From: a bacterium
GTDB taxonomy: Bacteria > Babelota > Babeliae > Babelales > RVW-14
DNA: 41,043 bases
NCBI GenBank assembly: GCA_023249935.1
Contig: JAHFBQ010000003.1
Location: 1-41,043 of the forward strand
Direction of reading: 5' to 3'
Shown here: positions 29,592-40,967 of the stretch, one piece after another
Layout of the letters: each line of letters begins with the position of its first letter
Position numbering within the stretch: the stretch's first letter is position 1
Program-made: the position numbers and the translations under genes
The notes under the pieces: generated by a model
What the model saw: the letters and a program-made list of their open reading frames with translations, nothing else
What the model was told of the DNA's origin: nothing
The model's database searches: none

Positions 29592-32081
29592 TCAGCCATG
29601 CGCTGCAATTTTATCCGCAGCCCCATCATGCTTTTCTACTGCTTTGGTATTCGTAGACTGTTTGTTCTTCTGCTCTTTTTTATCGCGAGGTTTTTTTCCG
29701 TCAGCATTTTTTCCAGGCCCTTTACCGCGACCTGCCGCCTTAGAATCTTGTTTCTTTTTATCGCCTAGTTTATCAGCAGAATCCTTTTTCTTTTCGTCTT
29801 TGTCTTTATCTTTATCCGCTCCTGCGCGTTTCTTGCCTTTTTTGCCACCTTTCTTATGACCTCGGCGCTTAGCATTTTTCTCGCGATGTTCACCTTTTTT
29901 ATCAGCAGCTTCAAAGCCCTTAGATGGATTTGGCTGTACAGCAGGCGTATCACCCGGCCAGGTAATGCCATACAACGATTTGCCATCTTGGCTTATCACA
30001 TAAGTGGTACCATCGCAGCCAACAGCAGCACCAGCAGCCTTGATTGCCACACCCTTGGCATCAACAAGATTTACTCGTTGCCACGGATTTGAAGGATCGG
30101 CACTAGGCAATAACTGGCCCAATGTACCATCATCAAGAACAACAACAGCAAAGTCATCAAAAGATACGACTTTTCTCTTAGTCCCGCGATTATCAACCGC
30201 TACTTCAACTTCACGATCTTGTAACCCAATTGCTATGCTCTTTGGTTTTCCAGGCATAGTGATAAAACCGATCGGAAGATCAAGCTTGTGCATAAGTTCG
30301 GCCGCAATAAGAGCTGCCTTATCTGCATCAGCTTTTGCCTTTGCTTCTGCTTCACTTACCTTCTTTTTGGCATCTTCTTCTGCTTGTTTTTTAGCTTCGA
30401 CAAGAGCTTTATTTGCCGCTTCTAGCGCTTGAGAAGCTTTTTCTTGCTCAGCTTTAATAGCCGCGGCTTTCTCACCGTCTGCTTTTGCAGCCAACGCTGT
30501 CAAAGCCTCAATTCTTTTCTTTTCAGCCTCTTCAGCATCCAGCCTTTGTTTCTCTAGAAGCTTTGCCAACTCCTCATTTTTCTTCGCCACTTCCGCTAGT
30601 CGAGCCTGAGTCTCTTTTGCCTTAACTTCACCAATAATTTTTTCAATTTCCCTATTTACGAATTCCAAGTCTCTTCTGGCTCCATCATTAGACACAGTAG
30701 TTGGCAATACAGAAGAAAAACGATATTCTCCCCAAAATATTCGTCGCTCCGTACCATACTGATTCCTACCCCACTTATCTTCATCACCCTTGTCAGCAAG
30801 AATTTCCCAATACTGAGGCCCCCAGCGATTTGTACCATGTGTCCAGATGTAAGCACCTGTTTTAACGTTTCTAATACGTACAAGATCCATACTAGAAATG
30901 GCACCAGATTGACCTGCAATAACAGGTTCTAGAACAAATATTGCGCCATCATCTTGTGTTTGTCCATGCTCTGGTCTGGTAATTACTATTTCCCGATGCG
31001 GAGCTCCAAAGCGAGACTGTTCCAGCATCCACAGATATCTAAATGGTAGAAGTAATCCCTTCTTATCCTCTTCACCACCACCACCAAAGACAGACATTAT
31101 TTTAATACGATCACCAAACTGAATAGGTCCTGTTTTAAACTTATCATCTGCATTATGCATAGCAAAAAATGATGGACCTTGTTGAGTTCTCTGATCACCC
31201 CAAGGACCAAGAATAAGTTCTAGATGGTCATGTGGCGGAGGATTATTGCCCCCATCATGCCGACTACCACCATGCGTCCAAACTCTACGCTCGGCATGCT
31301 TTTCATCACATCTATCAGCCTCTGCATCCCAAAATAATGGGGTCCAATACGATAGCTGTGTAGAACGAGTCTTATCATAAATTGGTTTTATTTTTTCATT
31401 TTTGTCAGGTTGAACAGCTAATTCAATAACCCACCAGTCATTGTCATCGCGCCCAGCATATGTAGTAACCTCTTGCTTACCAGGCTTCCAATCTATGCCA
31501 TGGGAATGTAACGTTCTATTGGAATTAGCATGTCTAAACTTAACTTTATAGCCATCAGCAAGATATTCGAACCCACTTCCAGCATCATTTGCATCAACAA
31601 CAAAGTTATCGTTAGTATCACCCATACCGTTATCACCGAAGGCTGTCACCTCACCTTGACCTGTTTTTGGTGATCGTGCACCATGGCTGTGCAACTCTCG
31701 CCCTGTTGCAACGTTCTCAAAACGTAAAATCTGACCTCTTCGTACAGGCCAGCCAATCATTGAACGAAAATTAGTATCCCAGTTCAAAGCAAAGTTCCAA
31801 CGATCACCAGAATGACACCCCTTAATAATCCACAGAGCCTTGTCAGTCTTGTTATCGGCACCAGCATACACAGCAATTTGCCCTGACGTTCCAGGATGAT
31901 CATAGCGATCATCATCTACTGTCAGATATTTCCCTGTCAGCCCGTGCTTAAGACGTACTGTACAACCAAAGGTAACTAGATCCCGATCATATTTCGGTAC
32001 TGCTTGTGGCTCTGCAACGAGAGCACTTGTCACAAGACTTATAGCTCCCCAAAGCAGTAAAGACATTCTCTTATTCTTCAT
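29592..32081 (-). CDS. Gene B': secreted protein with SDF2-like MIR trefoil, second beta-trefoil, coiled-coil stalk, propeller repeats 1-2 and Lys-rich tail
   Basis: VTFGCTVRLKHGLTGKYL, RFENVATGRELHSH..SPKTGQGEVTAFG..G.GDTNDNF, KFRH...RTLHSH (MIR motifs); paralog of 35648..38005; likely start MKNKR at 32081 (track 32090). Confidence 0.85.
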   Translation of the reverse strand: MKNKRMSLLLWGAISLVTSALVAEPQAVPKYDRDLVTFGCTVRLKHGLTGKYLTVDDDRYDHPGTSGQIAVYAGADNKTDKALWIIKGCHSGDRWNFALNWDTNFRSMIGWPVRRGQILRFENVATGRELHSHGARSPKTGQGEVTAFGDNGMGDTNDNFVVDANDAGSGFEYLADGYKVKFRHANSNRTLHSHGIDWKPGKQEVTTYAGRDDNDWWVIELAVQPDKNEKIKPIYDKTRSTQLSYWTPLFWDAEADRCDEKHAERRVWTHGGSRHDGGNNPPPHDHLELILGPWGDQRTQQGPSFFAMHNADDKFKTGPIQFGDRIKIMSVFGGGGEEDKKGLLLPFRYLWMLEQSRFGAPHREIVITRPEHGQTQDDGAIFVLEPVIAGQSGAISSMDLVRIRNVKTGAYIWTHGTNRWGPQYWEILADKGDEDKWGRNQYGTERRIFWGEYRFSSVLPTTVSNDGARRDLEFVNREIEKIIGEVKAKETQARLAEVAKKNEELAKLLEKQRLDAEEAEKKRIEALTALAAKADGEKAAAIKAEQEKASQALEAANKALVEAKKQAEEDAKKKVSEAEAKAKADADKAALIAAELMHKLDLPIGFITMPGKPKSIAIGLQDREVEVAVDNRGTKRKVVSFDDFAVVVLDDGTLGQLLPSADPSNPWQRVNLVDAKGVAIKAAGAAVGCDGTTYVISQDGKSLYGITWPGDTPAVQPNPSKGFEAADKKGEHREKNAKRRGHKKGGKKGKKRAGADKDKDKDEKKKDSADKLGDKKKQDSKAAGRGKGPGKNADGKKPRDKKEQKNKQSTNTKAVEKHDGAADKIAAHG

Positions 32082-32141
32082 TACATACATCCCTTTCTAT
32101 TAGCCATACCGTTACTTTTCCCTTTTTTTATTTTCTTTGTT

Positions 32142-34469
32142 TCAGCGCACCTTGTTGGCAGGTTTTTTTAATTTTTTTCCTCCCTTGGCGTGCTCCTGAA
32201 TTTTTTTATCTCCTTTTCCTGACAGCTTTTTCTTACTAGGCTTTGTATCTTTCTCTAAGGGTTTTTCAGTCATTGGCAACACGGGTACACCCATCTTAAT
32301 AGTATCATCCAGCTGCACGTCAGGTTCTCCCTTTCTGTATACATAGCCCCGATCACCCTCAAGCACTATGCTAAACCGCTGCTTAGTTGGTAAAGCAATA
32401 ATATCTTTCAAACCAACTGCATCACTACCATCAGCAGTTTGCATCGGTTCCCATGCACCTTTCACAAAAGCATACGTTTTATGTTTCTTCCCATCCACAA
32501 CAATGCCATAAAGTTCTTCTCTGGTTACCGCGCTGATCATACTAAAAGCAAGCCCAGTTTCCATACGCTTCCAAGCACTTTCTTTTTTGTCTGCTGAAGT
32601 CTCCCATGAAAACAACTCATGCTTTGTATTGAGTGCATACAACGAACCATCATAGCCGGCCGCAATATCCAAGCCTTCACCTTCAGAAAGCAATAACCAA
32701 GCATCCCCTTGCAAAACATAAATATTTTTCTCTTTTTTGTCCAAGCCCATGACAGTACCAGCATTACCAATCGCAATACGATCAATAGTAACCGCTTTCC
32801 TTTTGTTAGATCCCTTCCCAGAAATTAATTTATTTGAGGCAACCGCCCAATGACCTTGTTTAGTGAAAAAATAGACCCGTCGCTTCGCACTCACAACAGC
32901 CACTGTACCATCAGCACCAGCGGCAACATCGACAACACTTGCAATCTTTGCACCCATAGCATCTTTTAGTTCAACAGGGTTCCATGGATCTTGCTTTAAA
33001 GAACCTGTATCCCATACATAGAGTTGATTCTTGTTGTTAATACCATATAAAAACACTTTTCCCTCAAGCATACTCAGCGCTACCGCACTCATTGACCCTG
33101 GAATTTGTACAAAATCAGCGGGAACTTTAGCTCCCTGCTCATTACCACTTTGCGCTATATTTTCACACTCAATACTTGAATCCCACCCACCAATACCAAC
33201 GTACTGAACAAACCTTAGTGACTGTTCATCAGTCCAGCTCATTTTTATATTTTCGCCAACCTTAGAACCCTTGCCAGCAGTAATCACCGCCTTACCATCA
33301 TCGTGTTGCTCAATATTTACCCATAACTCATCAAATTCTGTACCCTTGCCTATAATAAGCGCCGATGGATCACCACCTTTAGTAACATCAACTTCCATCA
33401 TAACTTGAGTACCCTTGCGAATCTGAGATCGGGTATTTTTATATGCACCAAAAAAGACCGCGTAGGTCCCTGCTGCATCCATCCACTTTGGTTGCGTAGA
33501 GATATAGACAATCACATCAGATTTTGCACGTGCCTTAAATTTTACCCAAAACGTTCCCGGTTTATCACTTTTCCACTGTTCGCTATAAACCGATCCGCCC
33601 TTACCAAATATAGCCGGCTCATAAGTAAAATTACGGCCACCAGAAGCATATTTGCCACCAGGTTTTGCTTTTCCTTCAGTAACCACACGAGCAAGATCCT
33701 GCCATCCCAAATCATTGAGTAGCTGTGTATCGATATTGCTTATCGTAAACTTACCCGCCTCAATTCTACGATCACCACCCAACTCACTCTTTGGATCTCG
33801 CCCCCATGGGTCATCAGAACTGATAAGCACGGGCAATACACCTTTTTGATCAAGATTAAGTACCCACATCATACGATTATTGGCAGCACCAGGAGCACGG
33901 CTTACAATATTCACCACCGCTCCCTGCTCAATAGTACCCGTTTTACCAGTAGGGCTGGTGATAGTAAATTTTACCGCATCAGTTTTGAGCGCAGGTTCCG
34001 TATCATCGCTCACACGCGGCTCAAAATGTACGGCATCCTTATCCTTTGCTTCATTCCACTTGGACCCAGAAAAGGTCCAAACTAACCGGCGCTTGACAAG
34101 AAAACCAACTTTATCAGCCCATGCCCCAGTACCAGCTTTTACTGCCTCGATGGTACAAATTTCATTGAACTGAATTGGACCTGTTTTTTCTGGCGTTGCA
34201 GCAGACTTAAAAACAACTAATGCCGATCCATCTTTAGCTAAATCATGATCATCAGCAACAGCAACCATCTCAAATGGAGCAGCGGAATCTGTCGATTTGA
34301 GACCGGCAAATTCAGCTCGCACAGCCAACATTCGATTAAATTGTTGAGACCGGATACACACCGGCGTGTTGTACTCCAAAGGTATTGCCGTTACCTGCGA
34401 TAAAGAACCAATTCCTACAATCCCCAACAAAACACTACCAACACGAAGCGCCTTCAATAAACCCTTCAT
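32142..34469 (-). CDS. Gene A': secreted protein with beta-trefoil, FAMeT-like domain, six-repeat tectonin-like propeller and short Lys-rich tail
   Basis: Signal peptide; FKARAKSD...YAVFFGAYKNTRSQIRK...ELWV...ITAGKG...MSWTD...QYVGIGGWD (Methyltransf_FA-like); DVAAGADGTV and DIAAGYDGSLYALN repeats; ATG 34469 after AAGGAG (track start GTG 34475). Confidence 0.82.
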   Translation of the reverse strand: MKGLLKALRVGSVLLGIVGIGSLSQVTAIPLEYNTPVCIRSQQFNRMLAVRAEFAGLKSTDSAAPFEMVAVADDHDLAKDGSALVVFKSAATPEKTGPIQFNEICTIEAVKAGTGAWADKVGFLVKRRLVWTFSGSKWNEAKDKDAVHFEPRVSDDTEPALKTDAVKFTITSPTGKTGTIEQGAVVNIVSRAPGAANNRMMWVLNLDQKGVLPVLISSDDPWGRDPKSELGGDRRIEAGKFTISNIDTQLLNDLGWQDLARVVTEGKAKPGGKYASGGRNFTYEPAIFGKGGSVYSEQWKSDKPGTFWVKFKARAKSDVIVYISTQPKWMDAAGTYAVFFGAYKNTRSQIRKGTQVMMEVDVTKGGDPSALIIGKGTEFDELWVNIEQHDDGKAVITAGKGSKVGENIKMSWTDEQSLRFVQYVGIGGWDSSIECENIAQSGNEQGAKVPADFVQIPGSMSAVALSMLEGKVFLYGINNKNQLYVWDTGSLKQDPWNPVELKDAMGAKIASVVDVAAGADGTVAVVSAKRRVYFFTKQGHWAVASNKLISGKGSNKRKAVTIDRIAIGNAGTVMGLDKKEKNIYVLQGDAWLLLSEGEGLDIAAGYDGSLYALNTKHELFSWETSADKKESAWKRMETGLAFSMISAVTREELYGIVVDGKKHKTYAFVKGAWEPMQTADGSDAVGLKDIIALPTKQRFSIVLEGDRGYVYRKGEPDVQLDDTIKMGVPVLPMTEKPLEKDTKPSKKKLSGKGDKKIQEHAKGGKKLKKPANKVR

Positions 34470-34502
34470 CCTCACTCTCCTTTTTTAATGAACTTGTCAA
34501 CG

Positions 34503-34532: not shown

Positions 34533-34580
34533 AAAGAAAAGTACCCCGGGATACTTTCCAGTGTCCCGGGGTACTTTTCT
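34531..34580 (-). terminator. Rho-independent terminator after gene C, separating the two modules
   Basis: + strand AGAAAAGTACCCCGGGATAC-TTTCCA-GTGTCCCGGGGTACTTTTCT; T run follows on the minus strand. Confidence 0.85.
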
Positions 34581-34592
34581 AGACTTTAGTAC

Positions 34593-35582
34593 TTATTCAG
34601 CCTGCTTAGCTTTCTTTTTCTTCTTAGCTTTCTTACCCTCTTTATGATCTTGCTCCTCGGCATCGGGTTTACCATCGCCGTCAGCATCGATCATGGCAGC
34701 ATCAGCCTTTTTATCTTTTTTGCCTTTGCCTTTTTTATCTTTCTTAGCTTTCTTACCTTTTTTATGATCTTGCTCTTCGGCATCGGGTTTACCATCGCCG
34801 TCAGCATCAATCATGGCAGCATCAGCCTTTTTATCTTTTTTGCCTTTGCCTTTTTTATCTTTCTTAGCTTTCTTACCTTCTTTCTTATCTTTTTCAATAA
34901 CAGCTTTTACTTTTTCATGCATCTGAACTCTGGTTACATCGCGCTTTAAAAGCTCACCATCATCGGTCAACGCTAATATGGCTTCTTCTTCATTGGCAGA
35001 AAAATCAATTATACCCTTAGCATCTAACCCTTGAAGATTTTTCACAGGTAGCCATTGATTCTCTTCATCATCATACATGTAACTAGCAAAAGCCCCCTTC
35101 CCCGTCTCAAGCAATCCCCAACCAACCTTATGATTTGGTCTTGAAACACGGCTGAGCTTAAGCCCTTCAATTTTTTTCCAGTCGTCACCAGTTCCACCTT
35201 CAAGCTCAAAGACTTCTTGCTTATCATTAATCGCAGTAACAATCTCCTTACCAGCAGCAACAAAAACTCCATCAAACTTTTTGACTAAGCCCCTTGAAGT
35301 TAGCTGATACACAGCATCTTTTGAACCATCATTCGCCACACACCACACATTATTTTGATCAGAAGCACTAGCCATTTTAACCATTAACTTATCATTGCCA
35401 GCACCTTTATCCATGAGCACAGCGCTGGCAGCTTTGGCATCTTTGGCAGGCTCTACAAGGCGCCACTCTGGCGCAGCGGTCGGTTTCATTGCTGTAAGGG
35501 CAGCTTGTTCTTCTGCTGCGTATAATCCACTCACACTCAGCATAAAGCCGTATGCAAGTGCTTTGGTATATTTCATGTTCAT
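34593..35582 (-). CDS. Gene C: secreted protein with four tectonin-like propeller repeats (3-6) and Lys-rich tail with two DADGDGKPDAEE motifs
   Basis: Signal peptide (..LSVSGLYA); repeats ending in W (GTGDDW, ENQW); paralog of C'. Confidence 0.82.
   Translation of the reverse strand: MNMKYTKALAYGFMLSVSGLYAAEEQAALTAMKPTAAPEWRLVEPAKDAKAASAVLMDKGAGNDKLMVKMASASDQNNVWCVANDGSKDAVYQLTSRGLVKKFDGVFVAAGKEIVTAINDKQEVFELEGGTGDDWKKIEGLKLSRVSRPNHKVGWGLLETGKGAFASYMYDDEENQWLPVKNLQGLDAKGIIDFSANEEEAILALTDDGELLKRDVTRVQMHEKVKAVIEKDKKEGKKAKKDKKGKGKKDKKADAAMIDADGDGKPDAEEQDHKKGKKAKKDKKGKGKKDKKADAAMIDADGDGKPDAEEQDHKEGKKAKKKKKAKQAE
34621..34880 (-). repeat. 120-bp in-frame tandem repeat (2 copies plus a partial) encoding KKAKKDKKGKGKKDKKADAAMIDADGDGKPDAEEQDHK
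   Basis: 34621-34740 and 34741-34860 differ at 4 positions by manual comparison. Confidence 0.92.
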
Positions 35583-35603
35583 CTGTTTTTATCCTTTCAC
35601 TAG

Positions 35604-35632
35604 ACGCGGGTACGCGTAATACGTACCCGCGT
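35604..35632 (-). promoter_or_regulatory. Intergenic stem-loop at the B|C junction, without a U tract
   Basis: ACGCGGGTACG-CGTAATA-CGTACCCGCGT, an 11-bp perfect stem, 5 nt upstream of the GAAAGG SD of gene C. Confidence 0.75.
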
Positions 35633-35647
35633 ACTTTCTAAAGTTGC

Positions 35648-37996
35648 TTAGTTGTTTACCGTTGCATCGATAGCAGCAGCCTTAGCTTTCTTGCCTTTAG
35701 CTTTCTTGCCTTTTTTATGATCACGCTCTTCAGCATCGGGTTTACCATCACCGTCAACATCAATCATAGCGGCATCAGCCTTTTTACCTTTTTTACCCTT
35801 AGCTTTTTTGCCTTCTTTTTTACCTTTTTTACCCTTAGCTTTTTTAGCATCCTTAGCTTCTTTTTGCTCTTTACGTTGCTTGGCTTTTTTATCAGCAGCT
35901 TCAAAGCCTTTAGATGCTTGCGGCATTGCAGCAGGTGTATCATCTGGCCAGCTTATGCCATAGAGTTTACCGTCTTCACTCACAACATAGGTTGTTCCAT
36001 CGGTAGCAACAGTAGCTGCAACAGCTTTAATTGCGGCTCCACTAGCATCAGCAAGAGGTACTTGCTGCCATGGGTTTGCAGGATCGACACTAAGCTTATA
36101 TTGACCAAGAGAACCATCTTCAAGAATAATTACACCAAAGTCATCAAAGATAAGTTGCTTTTCTTTTGTTCCCTTATTATCAATAGTTTTTTCAATTTCA
36201 TGATCTTGCAAACCAAACGCTATACTCTTAACTTTTTTTCCTGGTATGCGAGCAAAGCCAATTGGAAGATCCAACTGATCCTGAAGCTCTTCAGCCATAC
36301 GAGCAACCTTATCTGCTTCAGCTTTTGTCTTTGCCTCTTCTGCACTTAATTTTGTAGCAGCATCCCTAGCTGCTTGTTCAGCGGCATCTTCAGCAGTTTT
36401 TTTAGCTGCCTCTAAAGCCTTTAGAGCTCGAGATTTTTCCTCACTGTCCGCTAACGCAGCAAGCCTTGCTCGCTCTTTTGCATCAGCATCATCTTTTGCA
36501 GCCTGCAGAGCAATCGCTTGCTCTGCTAACTGTGCTTGAGCGGCAGCAACCAAGGCCTTTTGCTTAGCAGCTTCTGCAGGACCAAACATTTCTTCGATCT
36601 CTTTATTCACTGCCACTAAGTGATCACGCGCCGTATTATTCGCTACAGTGGTAGGCAAAACAAGAGAGAACCGATATTTTTCAAATAATACATGACGTCC
36701 AACACCAAGGTTGCTCTTGCCCCAAGGATCCTCAGCAAGAAGCTCATGATAGGTTCCACCCCAACGACTATCAGGATGAGTCCAGCAATAAGACCCAAAA
36801 TTGATATTCTTAACACGAACAAGATCCATACTAGAAATTGGTCCCTCTTGTCCGACAATAATAGGCTCTAAAGTAAAAACCGCTTGATTATTTGCGGTAG
36901 AAGAATGCTCTGGTCTGCTTATAACAATTTCGCGATATCCAGCACCATGACGAGAATCAGGATGCATCCATAGATATCTAAATGGTAACAATAATCCAGC
37001 CTTATCGCCCTCGCCAGGACCGCCATGCACCGCCATTATTTTAATCTTGTCACCAAAATTAATTGGTCCGGTCTTGAATTTATCATCCGCATTATGGATA
37101 ACAAAAAATGACGGACCTTCTTTAACACGAGGATCATTCCATGGCCCTGCAAGTAGTTCTAGATGATCATGCGGTGGATAGTTATTACCTCCATCATATC
37201 GACTACCACCATGCGCCCATACTCGACGATCTGCGTAGGTAGCACTACACGCCCCAGTTTCAGCATCCCAAAACACCGGGGTCCAATATGAAAGCTTGGT
37301 AGATCTACTTTCATCATACTTAGCTTTTATTGCCGTATTTTTATCTGGTTGAGCAACAATCTCAATAATCCACCAGTCATTGTCATCGCGCCCAGCATAC
37401 GTAGTTATCTCATTCTTACCTTGCTTCCAATCAGCCATAAGTGAGTGTAAAACCCGACCAGTGTTTTCATGCTTTAGCTTTACTGCATAGCCATCTGTAA
37501 CGTACCCAGCGCCAACCTCACGGGCTATCTCTGCAACAACCCAATTATCATTTGTATCACCATTACCATTGCTGCCATATACTGTTGTTTCTGACTGTCT
37601 AGTAATTGGAGATATTGCATTATGGCTATGCAGATTGCGACCTGTCTTGACATTTTCTAATCGAAATACCTGATTGAAACGCATAGGCCAACCAATCGCT
37701 GAGCGAGCAGTATCTTGGGCATTAAAGTCAAAATTCCATCGATCACCAGAATGCTTACCTTTCACAATCCAATGAGCACCAGAAGCACTTGCATCAGTTC
37801 CTCCATATACAGCAACCTGTCCAGAAGTTCCATCGTGAGTGTAATTCTCCTCAGCATCGGTCAGATACTTACCGGTTGCACTATGCTTAAGCCGTATCGA
37901 ACAGCCATAAGTGACAGGATCTCTCTCATAGGCCAAAACAGCACTTGCCATGAGGGTAAACACCCCGCAAAGCAATAAATACATTCTCTTCTTCAT
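35648..37996 (-). CDS. Gene B: secreted protein with SDF2-like MIR trefoil, second beta-trefoil, coiled-coil stalk, propeller repeats 1-2 and Lys-rich tail with one DVDGDGKPDAEE
   Basis: VTYGCSIRLKHSATGKYL, RLENVKTGRNLHSH..SPIT.Q.ET..YG..G.GDTNDNWVV, KLKHENTGRVLHS; likely start MKKRM at 37996 (track 38005). Confidence 0.85.
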   Translation of the reverse strand: MKKRMYLLLCGVFTLMASAVLAYERDPVTYGCSIRLKHSATGKYLTDAEENYTHDGTSGQVAVYGGTDASASGAHWIVKGKHSGDRWNFDFNAQDTARSAIGWPMRFNQVFRLENVKTGRNLHSHNAISPITRQSETTVYGSNGNGDTNDNWVVAEIAREVGAGYVTDGYAVKLKHENTGRVLHSLMADWKQGKNEITTYAGRDDNDWWIIEIVAQPDKNTAIKAKYDESRSTKLSYWTPVFWDAETGACSATYADRRVWAHGGSRYDGGNNYPPHDHLELLAGPWNDPRVKEGPSFFVIHNADDKFKTGPINFGDKIKIMAVHGGPGEGDKAGLLLPFRYLWMHPDSRHGAGYREIVISRPEHSSTANNQAVFTLEPIIVGQEGPISSMDLVRVKNINFGSYCWTHPDSRWGGTYHELLAEDPWGKSNLGVGRHVLFEKYRFSLVLPTTVANNTARDHLVAVNKEIEEMFGPAEAAKQKALVAAAQAQLAEQAIALQAAKDDADAKERARLAALADSEEKSRALKALEAAKKTAEDAAEQAARDAATKLSAEEAKTKAEADKVARMAEELQDQLDLPIGFARIPGKKVKSIAFGLQDHEIEKTIDNKGTKEKQLIFDDFGVIILEDGSLGQYKLSVDPANPWQQVPLADASGAAIKAVAATVATDGTTYVVSEDGKLYGISWPDDTPAAMPQASKGFEAADKKAKQRKEQKEAKDAKKAKGKKGKKEGKKAKGKKGKKADAAMIDVDGDGKPDAEERDHKKGKKAKGKKAKAAAIDATVNN

Positions 37997-38094
37997 TACA
38001 TACATCCCTTTCTATTAACCATACAGTTACCTACTCATCAAGCACTATGATAAATTGCAAAGCGAAAGGTAAAGTAAAAAAACTTTTAATTCCA

Positions 38095-38162: not shown

Positions 38163-40919
38163 TTAAGCAGCAGCTGACTCTACAGCTTTAGTTTTATGCC
38201 TTTTCTTTTCTCTAGCACCAGGCTTCCCGTCATGGTCAGCATCAACTACATCTTGCTTGCCATCACCATCAGCATCTGTAACCCTTTTTCGCTTTTTATC
38301 TTTGCCTTTCTTTTCTCCTTTATGACCACTCGCTACAGCATCTGGTTTGCCATCGCCGTCAGCATCGATCATTGCACCATCGGCATGCTTATCTTTTTTG
38401 CCTTTGCCTTTCTTGCCTTTGCCTTTCTTGTCTTTCTTGCCTTTTTTATGATCGCGCTCTTCAGCATCAGATTTTCCATCGCCATCAGCATCAATCATGG
38501 CGCCATCGGCATGCTTATCTTTTTTGCCTTTGCCTTTTTTATCTTTCTTAGCTTTCTTACCTTCTTTATGATCTTGCTTTTCAGCATCAGGTTTTCCATC
38601 ACCATCAGCATCAATCATTTTTGCTACGCCTTTTTTTAGCTTCTTTTTATCTTTCTTCTTTTCCTTTTTGTCCTTCTTAACTTTCTTATCTTTCACATGC
38701 TTTGCTTGGTCTTTAGCCTTATCTGCAGCTTCTTTTGCTGCTTTTGCAGCAGTTTCTGCTTCGGTTTTTGACGCAGCATCTTTTGCTTCCTCTGCGGCCT
38801 TAGCTGCTTTTACTGCTGCCTCAGCTGCTTCTTTTGCTGCCTTATCAGCGGCTGCAGCTGCCGCCGCTTCTGCTGCTGCTTTTGCCGCTGCCTCAGCAGG
38901 ACCTCTAACAGGAATATCCAATGTTCCTTTTTTCAAGACCTCTCCCCTGATATTCATCAGGAGTAACGCACCGCCTTGATTTGCAACAGCTTCTTTGATT
39001 CCTTCAACAGGTTTGCCAGCAGCATCCATCACCGGAGCCCAAGCACCCTTGTCAAACTTATGAAGGTAATAGCGACCATCCTGTTCCTTGGTACCATACA
39101 TAGTATCTTTATCGATGATGGCAAAGCGGCCTATTTTGTTTGGATTGTCAAATTCTACCCATTCACCGTCTTCTAGTTGGTAACAATCGAGATTTTTGTT
39201 AACCGCTAACAATGTATGTGGATAACCGGCAGCAATCGACATTGCTTGACCATGCGCAATGCGCTTCCATGCTCCATTAGAGTAAATGAAAACATCCGAA
39301 GACTCTTTATCAAGAATCGCGATCAAATCTTTACTTGCAATAGCCACACGATCCATGTCGATTGGTCTATCATCAGCCCCTTTTGGCGCTCCAAGGTTTT
39401 TCCAAGTATCTCCGCCATCATAAGAAACGAACAAACTTCCATCATCAGCAAGTACGCCAGCAGTACCATCAGCCGCAACCGCAACATCCTCAAATTTTGC
39501 AGGCGCTACTGAGCCATCTTTGACCTCAACAGCTTCCCAACCACCCATCGTAGCACCACTCATTTTGCTGAGCTTACGATCAGCAGAATCAATCATCATT
39601 GCAAGATATTTACCTTTAGTGGTTGCACCAAGAGCAATGCGATGCGCAACCCCCTCAATTTTTTCAATACCAGCAATATCTGAAATGGTCTGTTCCTCAA
39701 TAGTTGCTTCTGGATCGATTTGAATATCTTTAAATTCAACATCAAGATACCAACCCCCAAGTCCAAGATATCCTAACCCATCAACAACAGAATTTGCATG
39801 AGTAACTCGTTGATGCTCATTTTTTCCAAGAATCGTACCTTTACCCCAGGCAATAGTAACCTTACCGTCGGCTACTTCATAGGTTGCCCAATAATCTTCC
39901 CACGCAGTACCTTGATAGCTTCCAGTTTTTTCAAAATCACGGTCACTATCTTTTATTCTCCAGGCATGAAGCTTATCTCCATCAAATCCCCATCCACCGG
40001 TCAACATATCACCTTGATCACCACCTTTTTTGGCAGGATCATTTTCATACAACCAACGACGATCAATTTCGGTCCCACCATTATGAATGATACTGCGCGT
40101 GTTAGCATGGGCACCGATTGCTATCCAATACGCTTGATTATTAGCAAAATTTGCGGCGGGACTAAAAACAATATACGCATCCAGCGGCGCTTTAATTTTA
40201 AGCTTCACGGCACCACTTTTTGCCGACTTAAACGTCCATTTATCAGAGAAAGCAAAACCGTTTGCATCACGCATTGCACGTCTGAATGTAAACGCTGAAC
40301 CTCCGGCACGATCTTCATCGCCAACTGGATCGATGATTTCGATTTTTAGCCTTTCCCAAGTTCCATCACCAGAGGGACGATTCAGCGCATAGTTACCAGC
40401 AACTCGCCCATCAAAAAGATTGCCAGGAACTACTGACAAAAAGGTTTCTGTTGCTCTATTTTTTAATCGAACACCATCAAGATCATTCGCATCAGCAGTA
40501 ATCAAAGCCCATTGCTCCCAAGCACCAAAATTCCAATTTTCAAAACGACATACACGCATTGATGGATCAGAAACATTGCACTGTAAATTCTTACCACGAT
40601 TTTGTAGTGTTTTGATAGCAAGCCAGTTAGGATCATTGCTCATACGAACTATTTGAAACTGACAACGAGGATCAGTTTTATCTGTACCAGTTGCTTTAAG
40701 ATATTTATACTCATTTGGGTTTCCTGTGTCCGCAGAAGTCTTTTCAAGACACAAATATTTATTTCGTTCCTTAGAATAAATAGCCACTACAGTTCCGGCC
40801 TTTAACTGCTGTAACTGAGGTGAATCTTCAGCCGCACTTGCAGGAAGTTCGGCCAACAGCCTACCATCGATTATGGCAACCGCCAACAGGCCAGCTAATA
40901 AATATCGACATTGTTTCAT
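38163..40919 (-). CDS. Gene A: secreted protein with fascin/ricin-like beta-trefoil, FAMeT-like domain, six-repeat tectonin-like propeller, Ala-rich coil and Lys-rich tail with five DxDxDG motifs
   Basis: ATG 40919 (MKQCRYLLAGLLAVA) with AAAGGAG SD (track start 40961); GAWEQW and GTWERL trefoil motifs; KIKAPLDA...YWIAIGAHANTRSII...YWA...IAWGKG...GYLGLGGWY; DVAVAADGT, SIAAGY. Confidence 0.82.
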   Translation of the reverse strand: MKQCRYLLAGLLAVAIIDGRLLAELPASAAEDSPQLQQLKAGTVVAIYSKERNKYLCLEKTSADTGNPNEYKYLKATGTDKTDPRCQFQIVRMSNDPNWLAIKTLQNRGKNLQCNVSDPSMRVCRFENWNFGAWEQWALITADANDLDGVRLKNRATETFLSVVPGNLFDGRVAGNYALNRPSGDGTWERLKIEIIDPVGDEDRAGGSAFTFRRAMRDANGFAFSDKWTFKSAKSGAVKLKIKAPLDAYIVFSPAANFANNQAYWIAIGAHANTRSIIHNGGTEIDRRWLYENDPAKKGGDQGDMLTGGWGFDGDKLHAWRIKDSDRDFEKTGSYQGTAWEDYWATYEVADGKVTIAWGKGTILGKNEHQRVTHANSVVDGLGYLGLGGWYLDVEFKDIQIDPEATIEEQTISDIAGIEKIEGVAHRIALGATTKGKYLAMMIDSADRKLSKMSGATMGGWEAVEVKDGSVAPAKFEDVAVAADGTAGVLADDGSLFVSYDGGDTWKNLGAPKGADDRPIDMDRVAIASKDLIAILDKESSDVFIYSNGAWKRIAHGQAMSIAAGYPHTLLAVNKNLDCYQLEDGEWVEFDNPNKIGRFAIIDKDTMYGTKEQDGRYYLHKFDKGAWAPVMDAAGKPVEGIKEAVANQGGALLLMNIRGEVLKKGTLDIPVRGPAEAAAKAAAEAAAAAAADKAAKEAAEAAVKAAKAAEEAKDAASKTEAETAAKAAKEAADKAKDQAKHVKDKKVKKDKKEKKKDKKKLKKGVAKMIDADGDGKPDAEKQDHKEGKKAKKDKKGKGKKDKHADGAMIDADGDGKSDAEERDHKKGKKDKKGKGKKGKGKKDKHADGAMIDADGDGKPDAVASGHKGEKKGKDKKRKRVTDADGDGKQDVVDADHDGKPGAREKKRHKTKAVESAAA
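38215..38620 (-). repeat. Imperfect 120-126-bp coding repeats (Lys-rich plus IDADGDGKPD) in the tail of gene A
   Basis: Three MIDADGDGK units plus two degenerate ones; 38515-38578 matches 34711-34774 at 63 of 64 nt. Confidence 0.88.
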
Positions 40920-40967
40920 AAACTCTCCTTTAGTTGAAACAAACCAAAACTCTTTCACCAAGAAAAG

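Follow-up and report, generated by a model that had tools for sequence, protein, structure and literature searches.

Within the 41,043-nucleotide stretch of DNA analysed here (the window; GenBank contig JAHFBQ010000003.1, positions 1 to 41,043) the list of open reading frames (ORFs) holds six genes arranged head to tail on the minus strand, which we refer to as A, B, C, A', B' and C'. Our analysis indicates that B and C are likely to be the two subunits of one tectonin-type six-bladed beta-propeller, a B:C heterodimer predicted to close by reciprocal strand exchange, with blades 1-2 on B and blades 3-6 on C. Computation shows that the two proteins are complementary in domain content, that the pairing of their genes is conserved, that fused forms exist and that the complex is modelled with confidence; that they bind, that strands are exchanged in the actual proteins, that sugar is bound and where the ring assembles are what we infer. 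A B-C heterodimer formed by blade complementation was the core of the original prediction, which had been made from the letters of the window, and the complementary mapping, conserved pairs, fused forms and complex model support it in silico.

The two segments were located on a 250-position profile of 34 complete propellers, taken from the ORFs of the window and of 25 loci of related genomes. Membership required at least 85% coverage of the model so that no two-blade or four-blade protein could enter, which avoids circularity. A matched positions 3-249 of this profile and A' positions 1-250, while B matched positions 1-105 and C positions 93-248, the match of B past about position 92 being a run-on into its low-complexity tail. 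The second copy gave the same picture, with B' at positions 1-87 and C' at 95-248. On the complete propeller the B and C segments are complementary, colinear and essentially non-overlapping. Pairwise BLASTP aligned B 580-682 with A' 451-535 (E 1e-5) and with A 415-511 (E 4e-4), and placed C 99-214 on A' 595-717 (E 1e-7) and C 108-214 on A 576-678 (E 3e-5). The original prediction had read six consecutive tectonin-like repeats in each of A and A', repeats 1-2 in B, repeats 3-6 in C and the same 2+4 division in B' and C', and had named non-complementary mapping as what would speak against it; the repeats fall as it described, on barely overlapping parts of the propeller. A one-blade profile was also tried for counting blades and set aside in favour of the whole-propeller profile, as it was too insensitive and found 1-4 blades per protein.

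In order to see what the complete propeller looks like we modelled that of A' with AlphaFold2 (280 residues, 32 alignment rows). The model has 25 strands, a predicted local distance difference test score (pLDDT) of 93.4 and a predicted template modelling score (pTM) of 0.91, and its best Foldseek match is Tectonin 2 of Laccaria bicolor (5fsc, E 8.9e-13, template modelling score TMt 0.82, 24% identity) followed by the carp fish-egg lectin (4ruq). At the sequence level a profile of 32 family propellers matched the Tectonin 2 sequence (5fsb) with E 8.9e-35 across all six repeats (profile positions 13-252). By this model A' is a true six-bladed propeller with Tectonin 2 as its best solved fold match, as the original prediction would have it for the complete form. 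For B plus C the evidence for a closed six-blade ring consists of the profile mapping and the complex model.

The propeller family is expanded in the window's bacterial family, with matches in 29 of its 34 other genomes, and in 44 of 261 genomes at the level of the order. When the whole-propeller profile was used to sort the proteins of the fetched contexts into complete, two-blade-ending and four-blade-only forms, 12 adjacent same-strand pairs emerged in which a two-blade gene is followed by a four-blade gene, distributed over 10 genomes and 7 genera (two pairs each in G000, which is the genome of the window, and in G007, and one each in the same-genus genome G001 and in G012, G019, G021, G008, G017, G155 and G157). 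The gap within a pair is 6-84 nt in 10 of the 12, the others being 449 nt in G007, with an uncertain start codon, and 525 nt in G155. Wherever the gene upstream of a four-blade-only gene is visible it is a two-blade gene (12/12, with 3 more cut by contig ends), and a four-blade gene lies downstream of 12 of the 15 two-blade-ending genes whose downstream gene is visible (4 more being cut by contig ends). The invariant adjacency of B and C that the original prediction had proposed looking for holds from the side of C and fails from the side of B, through three B-type genes of G001.

The proteins that carry blades 1-2 differ in what precedes them. MIR-type B heads are found in the pairs of G000, G001, G012 and G019 and in the second pair of G007, A-type heads (ricin-like plus Methyltransf_FA-like) in the pair of G021 and the first pair of G007, and a variant A-type head in the pairs of G008, G017 and G155, while the two-blade protein of the G157 pair is headless and 239 aa long. 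A-type heads are fused to six blades in A, A' and G012 and are split 2+4 in G021 and G007; the kinship of the heads is seen for example between A 46-426 and residues 602-961 of a 1152-aa protein of G021 (E 1.9e-27). Both the fused and the split form, which the original prediction had suggested comparing, therefore occur with the same type of head, and this constitutes the classic fused-versus-split argument for interaction.

For the complex we submitted B 575-708 (42 alignment rows) together with C 26-222 (44 rows), each with its own alignment. Over three runs the interaction prediction score from aligned errors (ipSAE) was 0.88, 0.90 and 0.89 (median 0.89), the best of 3 controls giving 0.00; 58 of 80 solved complexes attain the mark used for this score, and so do 2 of 110 mismatched pairs, a calibration that is rough here as own alignments were used. 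The runs share at least 86% of their contacts. In the complex pLDDT was 84-87 for C and 74-78 for B, compared with 69 for C without B and 53-54 for B without C in the controls. The confidently predicted contacts fall in two zones. One joins residues 4-25 of the B segment to residues 155-191 of the C segment and brings R586/I587 of the first B strand up against L211/L212 of the last C strand, and the other joins residues 88-113 of the B segment to residues 14-58 of the C segment, with B L681-G683 against C A54-M57 and B V675 against C V68-A71. In the model this is the pattern expected of a closed ring with strand exchange at both junctions, so that the structure prediction for B plus C which the original prediction had suggested gives a closed ring at an ipSAE of 0.89 against 0.00.

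A number of points weigh against this reading. Halves of one domain tend to pass such a prediction by their likeness to solved propellers, and in the alignments used the corresponding halves of fused propellers stood in one common row order, because of which the result means that B and C can be modelled as one propeller and is not independent proof of binding. The Pfam Tectonin family (PF19193) scores A, C and C' at 22.8, 18.6 and 24.1 bits, under its gathering cut-off of 30. The three two-blade-ending genes (3/15) without a four-blade gene downstream are all B-type genes of G001 that lie at contig ends and are followed by unrelated genes. G001 has four B-type genes to one C-type gene, and B is therefore not always accompanied by a C of its own. 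A helical, Ala/Glu/Lys-rich stretch of about 120 residues lies between the head and the blades of B and could be an oligomerising, perhaps trimeric, coiled coil. Engineered propeller fragments, in the portion of the source at hand (PMC6805158), gave homo-oligomers only, which makes self-assembly of a two-blade piece a realistic alternative.

The last three of these points bear on an arrangement in which the two-blade end of B closes by itself as a homotrimer of 3 x 2 blades in the manner of RSL-type lectins, perhaps driven by the stalk, C is a separate open or self-associating four-blade lectin and the neighbourhood of the genes reflects a shared function. We consider this arrangement unlikely. 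Two-blade ends that lack a stalk follow A-type heads in G021, G007, G008 and G017, and the two-blade protein of G157 has no head at all, yet each is followed by a four-blade gene. B is specific to blades 1-2 and C to blades 3-6 in order. A two-blade partner lies upstream of 12 out of 12 four-blade-only genes whose upstream gene is visible, and four blades of six-fold geometry should be incapable of closing a ring by themselves.

The surplus of B-type genes in G001 raises the question as to whether B and C always meet one to one. The 5' end of each of the three unpaired genes is cut by the contig end, paralogues having probably broken the assembly, and their two-blade segments are intact and closely resemble that of the paired G001 B, including the first and last strands. 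One C may serve several B proteins in this genome, or B may self-assemble. A binding mode other than a closed 1:1 ring, such as a stalk-mediated (B:C)n bundle or a C shared among B paralogues, would suit the ratio of 4 to 1, the helical stalk of B and the two B-type clusters and one C-type cluster that apparently share a 21,001-nt metagenome contig. Against this stand the two B and two C genes of G000 and a 1:1 model that closes the ring with high confidence, and we judge such a mode improbable.

A further and tentative possibility, which may well prove wrong, is that C proteins are common sockets for which the two-blade ends are interchangeable plugs, carried on B paralogues, on A-type heads and on headless forms. 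Hints in this direction are the four B-type genes to one C in G001, the highly conserved plug strands of the three unpaired B, the at least three classes of head that share the same break point and a best tree with a single origin. If so, heads could be mixed on one propeller core after separate Sec export, amounting to a non-covalent and combinatorial way of building surface lectins in a genome of about 1.3 Mb. The original prediction had gone as far as a plug-and-socket joint linking different lectin heads; this holds only in part, as C is headless and consists of a signal peptide, four blades and a tail, and C' alone has an extra N-terminal domain.

The 1:1 heterodimer remains our preferred reading, and the junction between B and C is informative as to whether the split is real. 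In B a tail of about 98 residues runs up to a TAA at 35648-35650, and C, which begins after a gap of 65 nt, has an AAGGA Shine-Dalgarno-like motif 9 nt before its ATG and a hydrophobic N-terminus from which a signal peptide is read. The tail and stop codon of B and the start signals of C were both part of the original prediction, and both are found. The junction, from the stop of B to the start of C, is spanned with 0 differences by unitig-level contigs that come from two DNA runs of a single study, one of the two runs being possibly the source sample and C 34935-35504 being partly without cover in run X1. A programmed frameshift or readthrough that fuses B and C was considered and is implausible given the B tail of about 98 residues, the 65-nt gap with its hairpin and C's own signal peptide.

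We give hardly any credence to the idea that the split is decay or artefact, that is, a fused gene broken by a nonsense mutation, a frameshift or an assembly error, with C not being a functional partner. Two of the 12 pairs do look damaged: in the second pair of G007 (L069 8206-12308) the four-blade gene lies in two overlapping frames of 157 and 176 aa, being either a frameshifted pseudogene or a sequencing error, and in G155 the upstream gene has unknown bases and ends at profile position 55. Decay sits poorly with a tail on B that continues for about 98 residues past blade 2, with a C that brings its own ribosome-binding motif, hydrophobic N-terminus and linker, with contigs of two runs that cross the junction without a difference, and with a single break point (profile positions about 86-96) in 12 pairs and 38 four-blade-only proteins. 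The original prediction had held, on the strength of the second copy, that the split is not simple gene decay, and the 12 pairs, the recurring break point, C's own start signals and the 0-difference contigs bear this out.

The intercistronic region folds into a 12-bp G+C-rich hairpin (-25.5 kcal/mol, z -5.1, 0/200 shuffles as good), and a similar but weaker hairpin lies between B' and C' (region 29511-29594; z -1.76, 11/200 shuffles as good). The B-C hairpin might serve in the tuning of the B:C ratio or of mRNA stability. A pattern scan found no U-tract terminator between B and C, and nothing folds in the A'-B' interval. Terminator-like hairpins with a U tract are found just past C and also after A (-54.8 kcal/mol) and C' (-39.7 kcal/mol), an arrangement that suggests A, B-C and A'-B'-C' as transcription units.

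The split is also seen in large protein collections. In a set of 5.8 billion proteins each of the 18 B-type proteins, two of which come from the window, matches no more of the profile than its first 82-136 positions, and searches with C-type queries returned 159 proteins made up of 38 four-blade-only forms, 26 single complete propellers and 95 other or multi-domain proteins. A hydrophobic N-terminal window is present in 35 of the 38 four-blade-only proteins. A W-x-P motif lies shortly before blade 3 in 24 of these 38; among fused propellers 7 of 32 have it at the corresponding position, which hints modestly at a junction element peculiar to the split forms. For 6 of the 15 C-type clusters the longest contig is equally long as that of some B-type cluster, which suggests, and is not proof, that the two lie on the same contigs. 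By sequence the split proteins make up a diversified family. When blades 3-6 (44 rows) were placed in a quick maximum-likelihood tree, the 12 split rows needed three changes, of which well-supported branches force one, and keeping these 12 rows together improves the log-likelihood by 5.66 units over the free quick tree (p-AU, the P value of the approximately unbiased test, 0.663). A single old fission followed by exchange of heads is the best tree found and is not proven; one origin is not rejected.

In the mechanism we propose B and C would each be exported unfolded by a Sec-type signal peptide of their own, both putative and read from the N-termini. Thereafter blades 1-2 of B (578-687) and blades 3-6 of C (54-216) would close into one ring that neither could close alone. 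The first strand of B (the FARIPG stretch) would become the outer strand of C's last blade, and the first strand of C (AVLM, residues 54-57) would pair with the last strand of blade 2 of B. The product would be a propeller that carries B's double beta-trefoil head on a long helical stalk together with two basic tails, and B'/C' would be a duplicated copy of the B/C pair. Its most likely role is that of a lectin or adhesin, secreted or displayed on the surface, in a TM6 (Dependentiae) bacterium that lives in obligate association with protists, and the B/C product would be plausibly directed at the protist host, and by analogy with Tectonin 2 it could have up to two composite B:C sugar sites.

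The head of B was examined separately. Pfam MIR (cut-off 25.6) scores B at 49.4 bits and B' at 63.5 bits, both above the cut-off. An AlphaFold2 model of B 25-475 (22 alignment rows; pLDDT 91.2, pTM 0.89) has two tandem beta-trefoils, one of which matches the SDF2-like MIR domain 3mal in Foldseek with TMt 0.87. The top matches to the whole model are the N-terminal double trefoils of IP3R/RyR (E 1e-16), with a high root mean square deviation that we read as a different domain orientation. By phmmer B is related to 3mal (E 1.4e-10) and also to the MIR domains of PMT2/3. Beyond the B-type proteins of Dependentiae the nearest relatives of its MIR region are two eukaryotic transcriptome proteins, P0026 and P0027 (E 3e-28 and 2e-26 over about 42% of the query), in which MIR occurs with Ins145_P3_rec, EF-hand and PI-PLC-X domains. 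The head of B is possibly a host-derived domain. B 295-460 also aligns with A' 81-267 (BLASTP E 8e-8; window 36626-37123 and 33675-34235), so that B's second trefoil and the domain at the N-terminus of A' are homologous modules shuffled between head types. For the extra N-terminal domain of C' there are weak leads to DnaJ-like_C11_C (PF11875; scores 0.77-0.84, TM up to 0.46), and units similar to this domain open the two-blade proteins of G017 and G155. Pfam Methyltransf_FA is found in A (31.4 bits) and in A'.

Coordinates are collected in Table 1. The segments that the original prediction had delimited correspond to residues 580-686 of B, 40-215 of C, 605-711 of B', 204-380 of C', 431-679 of A and 454-716 of A', and the amino acids it cited are indeed encoded there. 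All six proteins have a hydrophobic N-terminal stretch (maximum 10-residue hydropathy 1.76-2.96) and a lysine-rich C-terminal tail. The listed ORF of A opens with TTG (window 40919-40961), and an ATG 14 codons on, at residue 15 and directly before the hydrophobic stretch, is the likelier start. Tandem DNA repeats of 120-126 bp are found in the tails of C (34621-34891) and A (38301-38683), encoding lysine-rich units with a DADGDGKPD-like acidic loop for which the hints from Pfam, EF-hand and FG-GAP, are weak. As protein the tail units of C and A share 88% identity, far above the identity of the propellers, which suggests concerted evolution of the two tails. The source assembly is of 1.27 Mb in 94 contigs and is 80% complete. 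Neighbours in the window are housekeeping genes (ClpB, PriA, MnmE, CysS, YidC and an LptD-like protein), and the plus-strand ORFs at 6339-8813 (824 aa) and 19090-20298 (402 aa) matched no NCBIfam family at E 1e-5.

Table 1 Features of the propeller genes in the window, and unpaired B-type genes of the same-genus genome G001 (positions on their own loci)
Feature	Position	Strand	Residues	Description or basis
Gene A	38163-40961	-	932 aa as listed	Head, complete six-bladed propeller, helical and basic tail
A complete propeller	38925-39674	-	430-679	Profile positions 3-249
Gene B	35648-38005	-	785 aa	Putative signal peptide, two beta-trefoils, helical stalk, blades 1-2, basic tail
B head, two tandem MIR-type beta-trefoils	36641-37930	-	about 26-455	AlphaFold2, Foldseek, phmmer
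B Ala/Glu/Lys-rich helical stalk	36275-36640	-	about 456-577	Sequence; helix starts at B 457 in the head model
B blades 1-2	35945-36274	-	578-687	Profile positions 1-105, BLASTP
B lysine-rich C-terminal tail with DxDGDGKPD motif	35651-35944	-		Sequence; motifs common to the A tail
B-C intercistronic 12-bp G+C-rich hairpin	35604-35632	-		Between B stop and C ribosome-binding site; no U tract
AAGGA Shine-Dalgarno-like motif	35592-35596	-		9 nt before the ATG of C
Gene C	34593-35582	-	329 aa	Putative signal peptide, short N-terminal extension, blades 3-6, basic repeat tail
C N-terminal extension and blades 3-6	34935-35465	-	40-53 and 54-216	Profile, BLASTP
Terminator-like hairpin with U tract	34536-34559	-		Just past the C stop; -37.6 kcal/mol, z -6.75
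Gene A'	32142-34475	-	777 aa	Head, complete six-bladed propeller, tail
A' complete propeller	32325-33125	-	451-717	Profile positions 1-250
Gene B'	29592-32090	-	832 aa	Paralogue of B; MIR 63.5 bits
B' blades 1-2	29955-30284	-	603-712	Profile positions 1-87
Gene C'	28044-29510	-	488 aa	Putative signal peptide, extra N-terminal domain, blades 3-6, basic tail
C' extra N-terminal domain	28911-29396	-	about 38-200	Absent from C
C' blades 3-6	28371-28859	-	218-380	Profile positions 95-248
G001 B-type gene, locus L075	6977-8017			No C gene downstream
G001 B-type gene, locus L076	2870-4630			No C gene downstream
G001 B-type gene, locus L077	6647-7168			No C gene downstream

A natural 2+4 heteromeric propeller is a design rarely seen for this fold. 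If B and C do bind, the pair would be a worked example of domain fission with assembly retained, a possible scaffold for split-lectin or split-tag engineering and a first handle on the building of secreted or surface proteins in Dependentiae, which are known mostly from metagenomes. Searches of an open-access library of papers returned nothing that joins Dependentiae with tectonin, and nothing on split, heterodimeric, intermolecular or hetero-oligomeric propellers under those names.

The ligands of Tectonin 2 are O-methylated glycans. The tectonin lectins, among them Tectonin 2 (5fsb/5fsc) and the carp fish-egg lectin (4ruq), have the same fold as the propellers described here and a detectable sequence kinship with them. 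They differ in that known tectonins are single-chain whereas here two gene products share the ring in a 2+4 division, and the ring is joined, unlike in known tectonins, to beta-trefoil heads, a helical stalk and basic tails. The likeness to MIR beta-trefoils (3mal, the MIR domains of PMT2/3 and the IP3R/RyR N-terminal double trefoil) is confined to the head of B and does not extend to the split. Sugar site 6 of Tectonin 2, as far as the available part of PMC6359319 describes it, is built of Trp3 together with Ser200, Asn216 and Tyr222 and so spans the N/C closure.

The nearest counterpart of the pair in assembly principle is Sec13, with homo-oligomeric propeller lectins and engineered fragments likewise near; the pair differs from both. 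Sec13 is an open six-bladed ring closed in trans by one blade of Sec31, Nup145C or Sec16, and shares with B/C an open propeller that is closed by blade material of another chain, with the velcro strand donated across chains (both from the part of PMC2922654 at hand). For B and C such closure of an incomplete ring by a second chain is what the in silico complex gives (ipSAE 0.89 vs 0.00). The Sec13 type is eukaryotic, cytosolic and WD40 with a 6+1 division, a single blade coming from a partner with an ACE1 helical domain, whereas B/C is bacterial, secreted and of tectonin type, with a 2+4 division that arises by fission of one domain and is encoded in adjacent genes. Accordingly B and C are not a WD40 propeller with an ACE1-type one-blade donor: the fold is that of the tectonins and the partner contributes two blades as well as beta-trefoil heads.

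The RSL/BambL lectins are trimers of two-blade chains. Together with tachylectin-2, Pizza and WRAP fragments, as treated in the consulted portion of PMC6805158, they likewise make a ring from chains with fewer blades and are lectin scaffolds. According to the abstract of that paper beta-propellers are almost always encoded in one chain, and in the portion named mixtures of engineered propeller fragments never gave hetero-oligomers. RSL/BambL and the engineered fragments are composed of identical chains, whereas B and C, which are predicted to pair, are unlike each other and hold blades (1-2 and 3-6) that are not equivalent. The present case is set apart by its two distinct chains, both bacterial and secreted and encoded by neighbouring genes, by a 2+4 division that arose through fission of one domain and by the diversification of the family.

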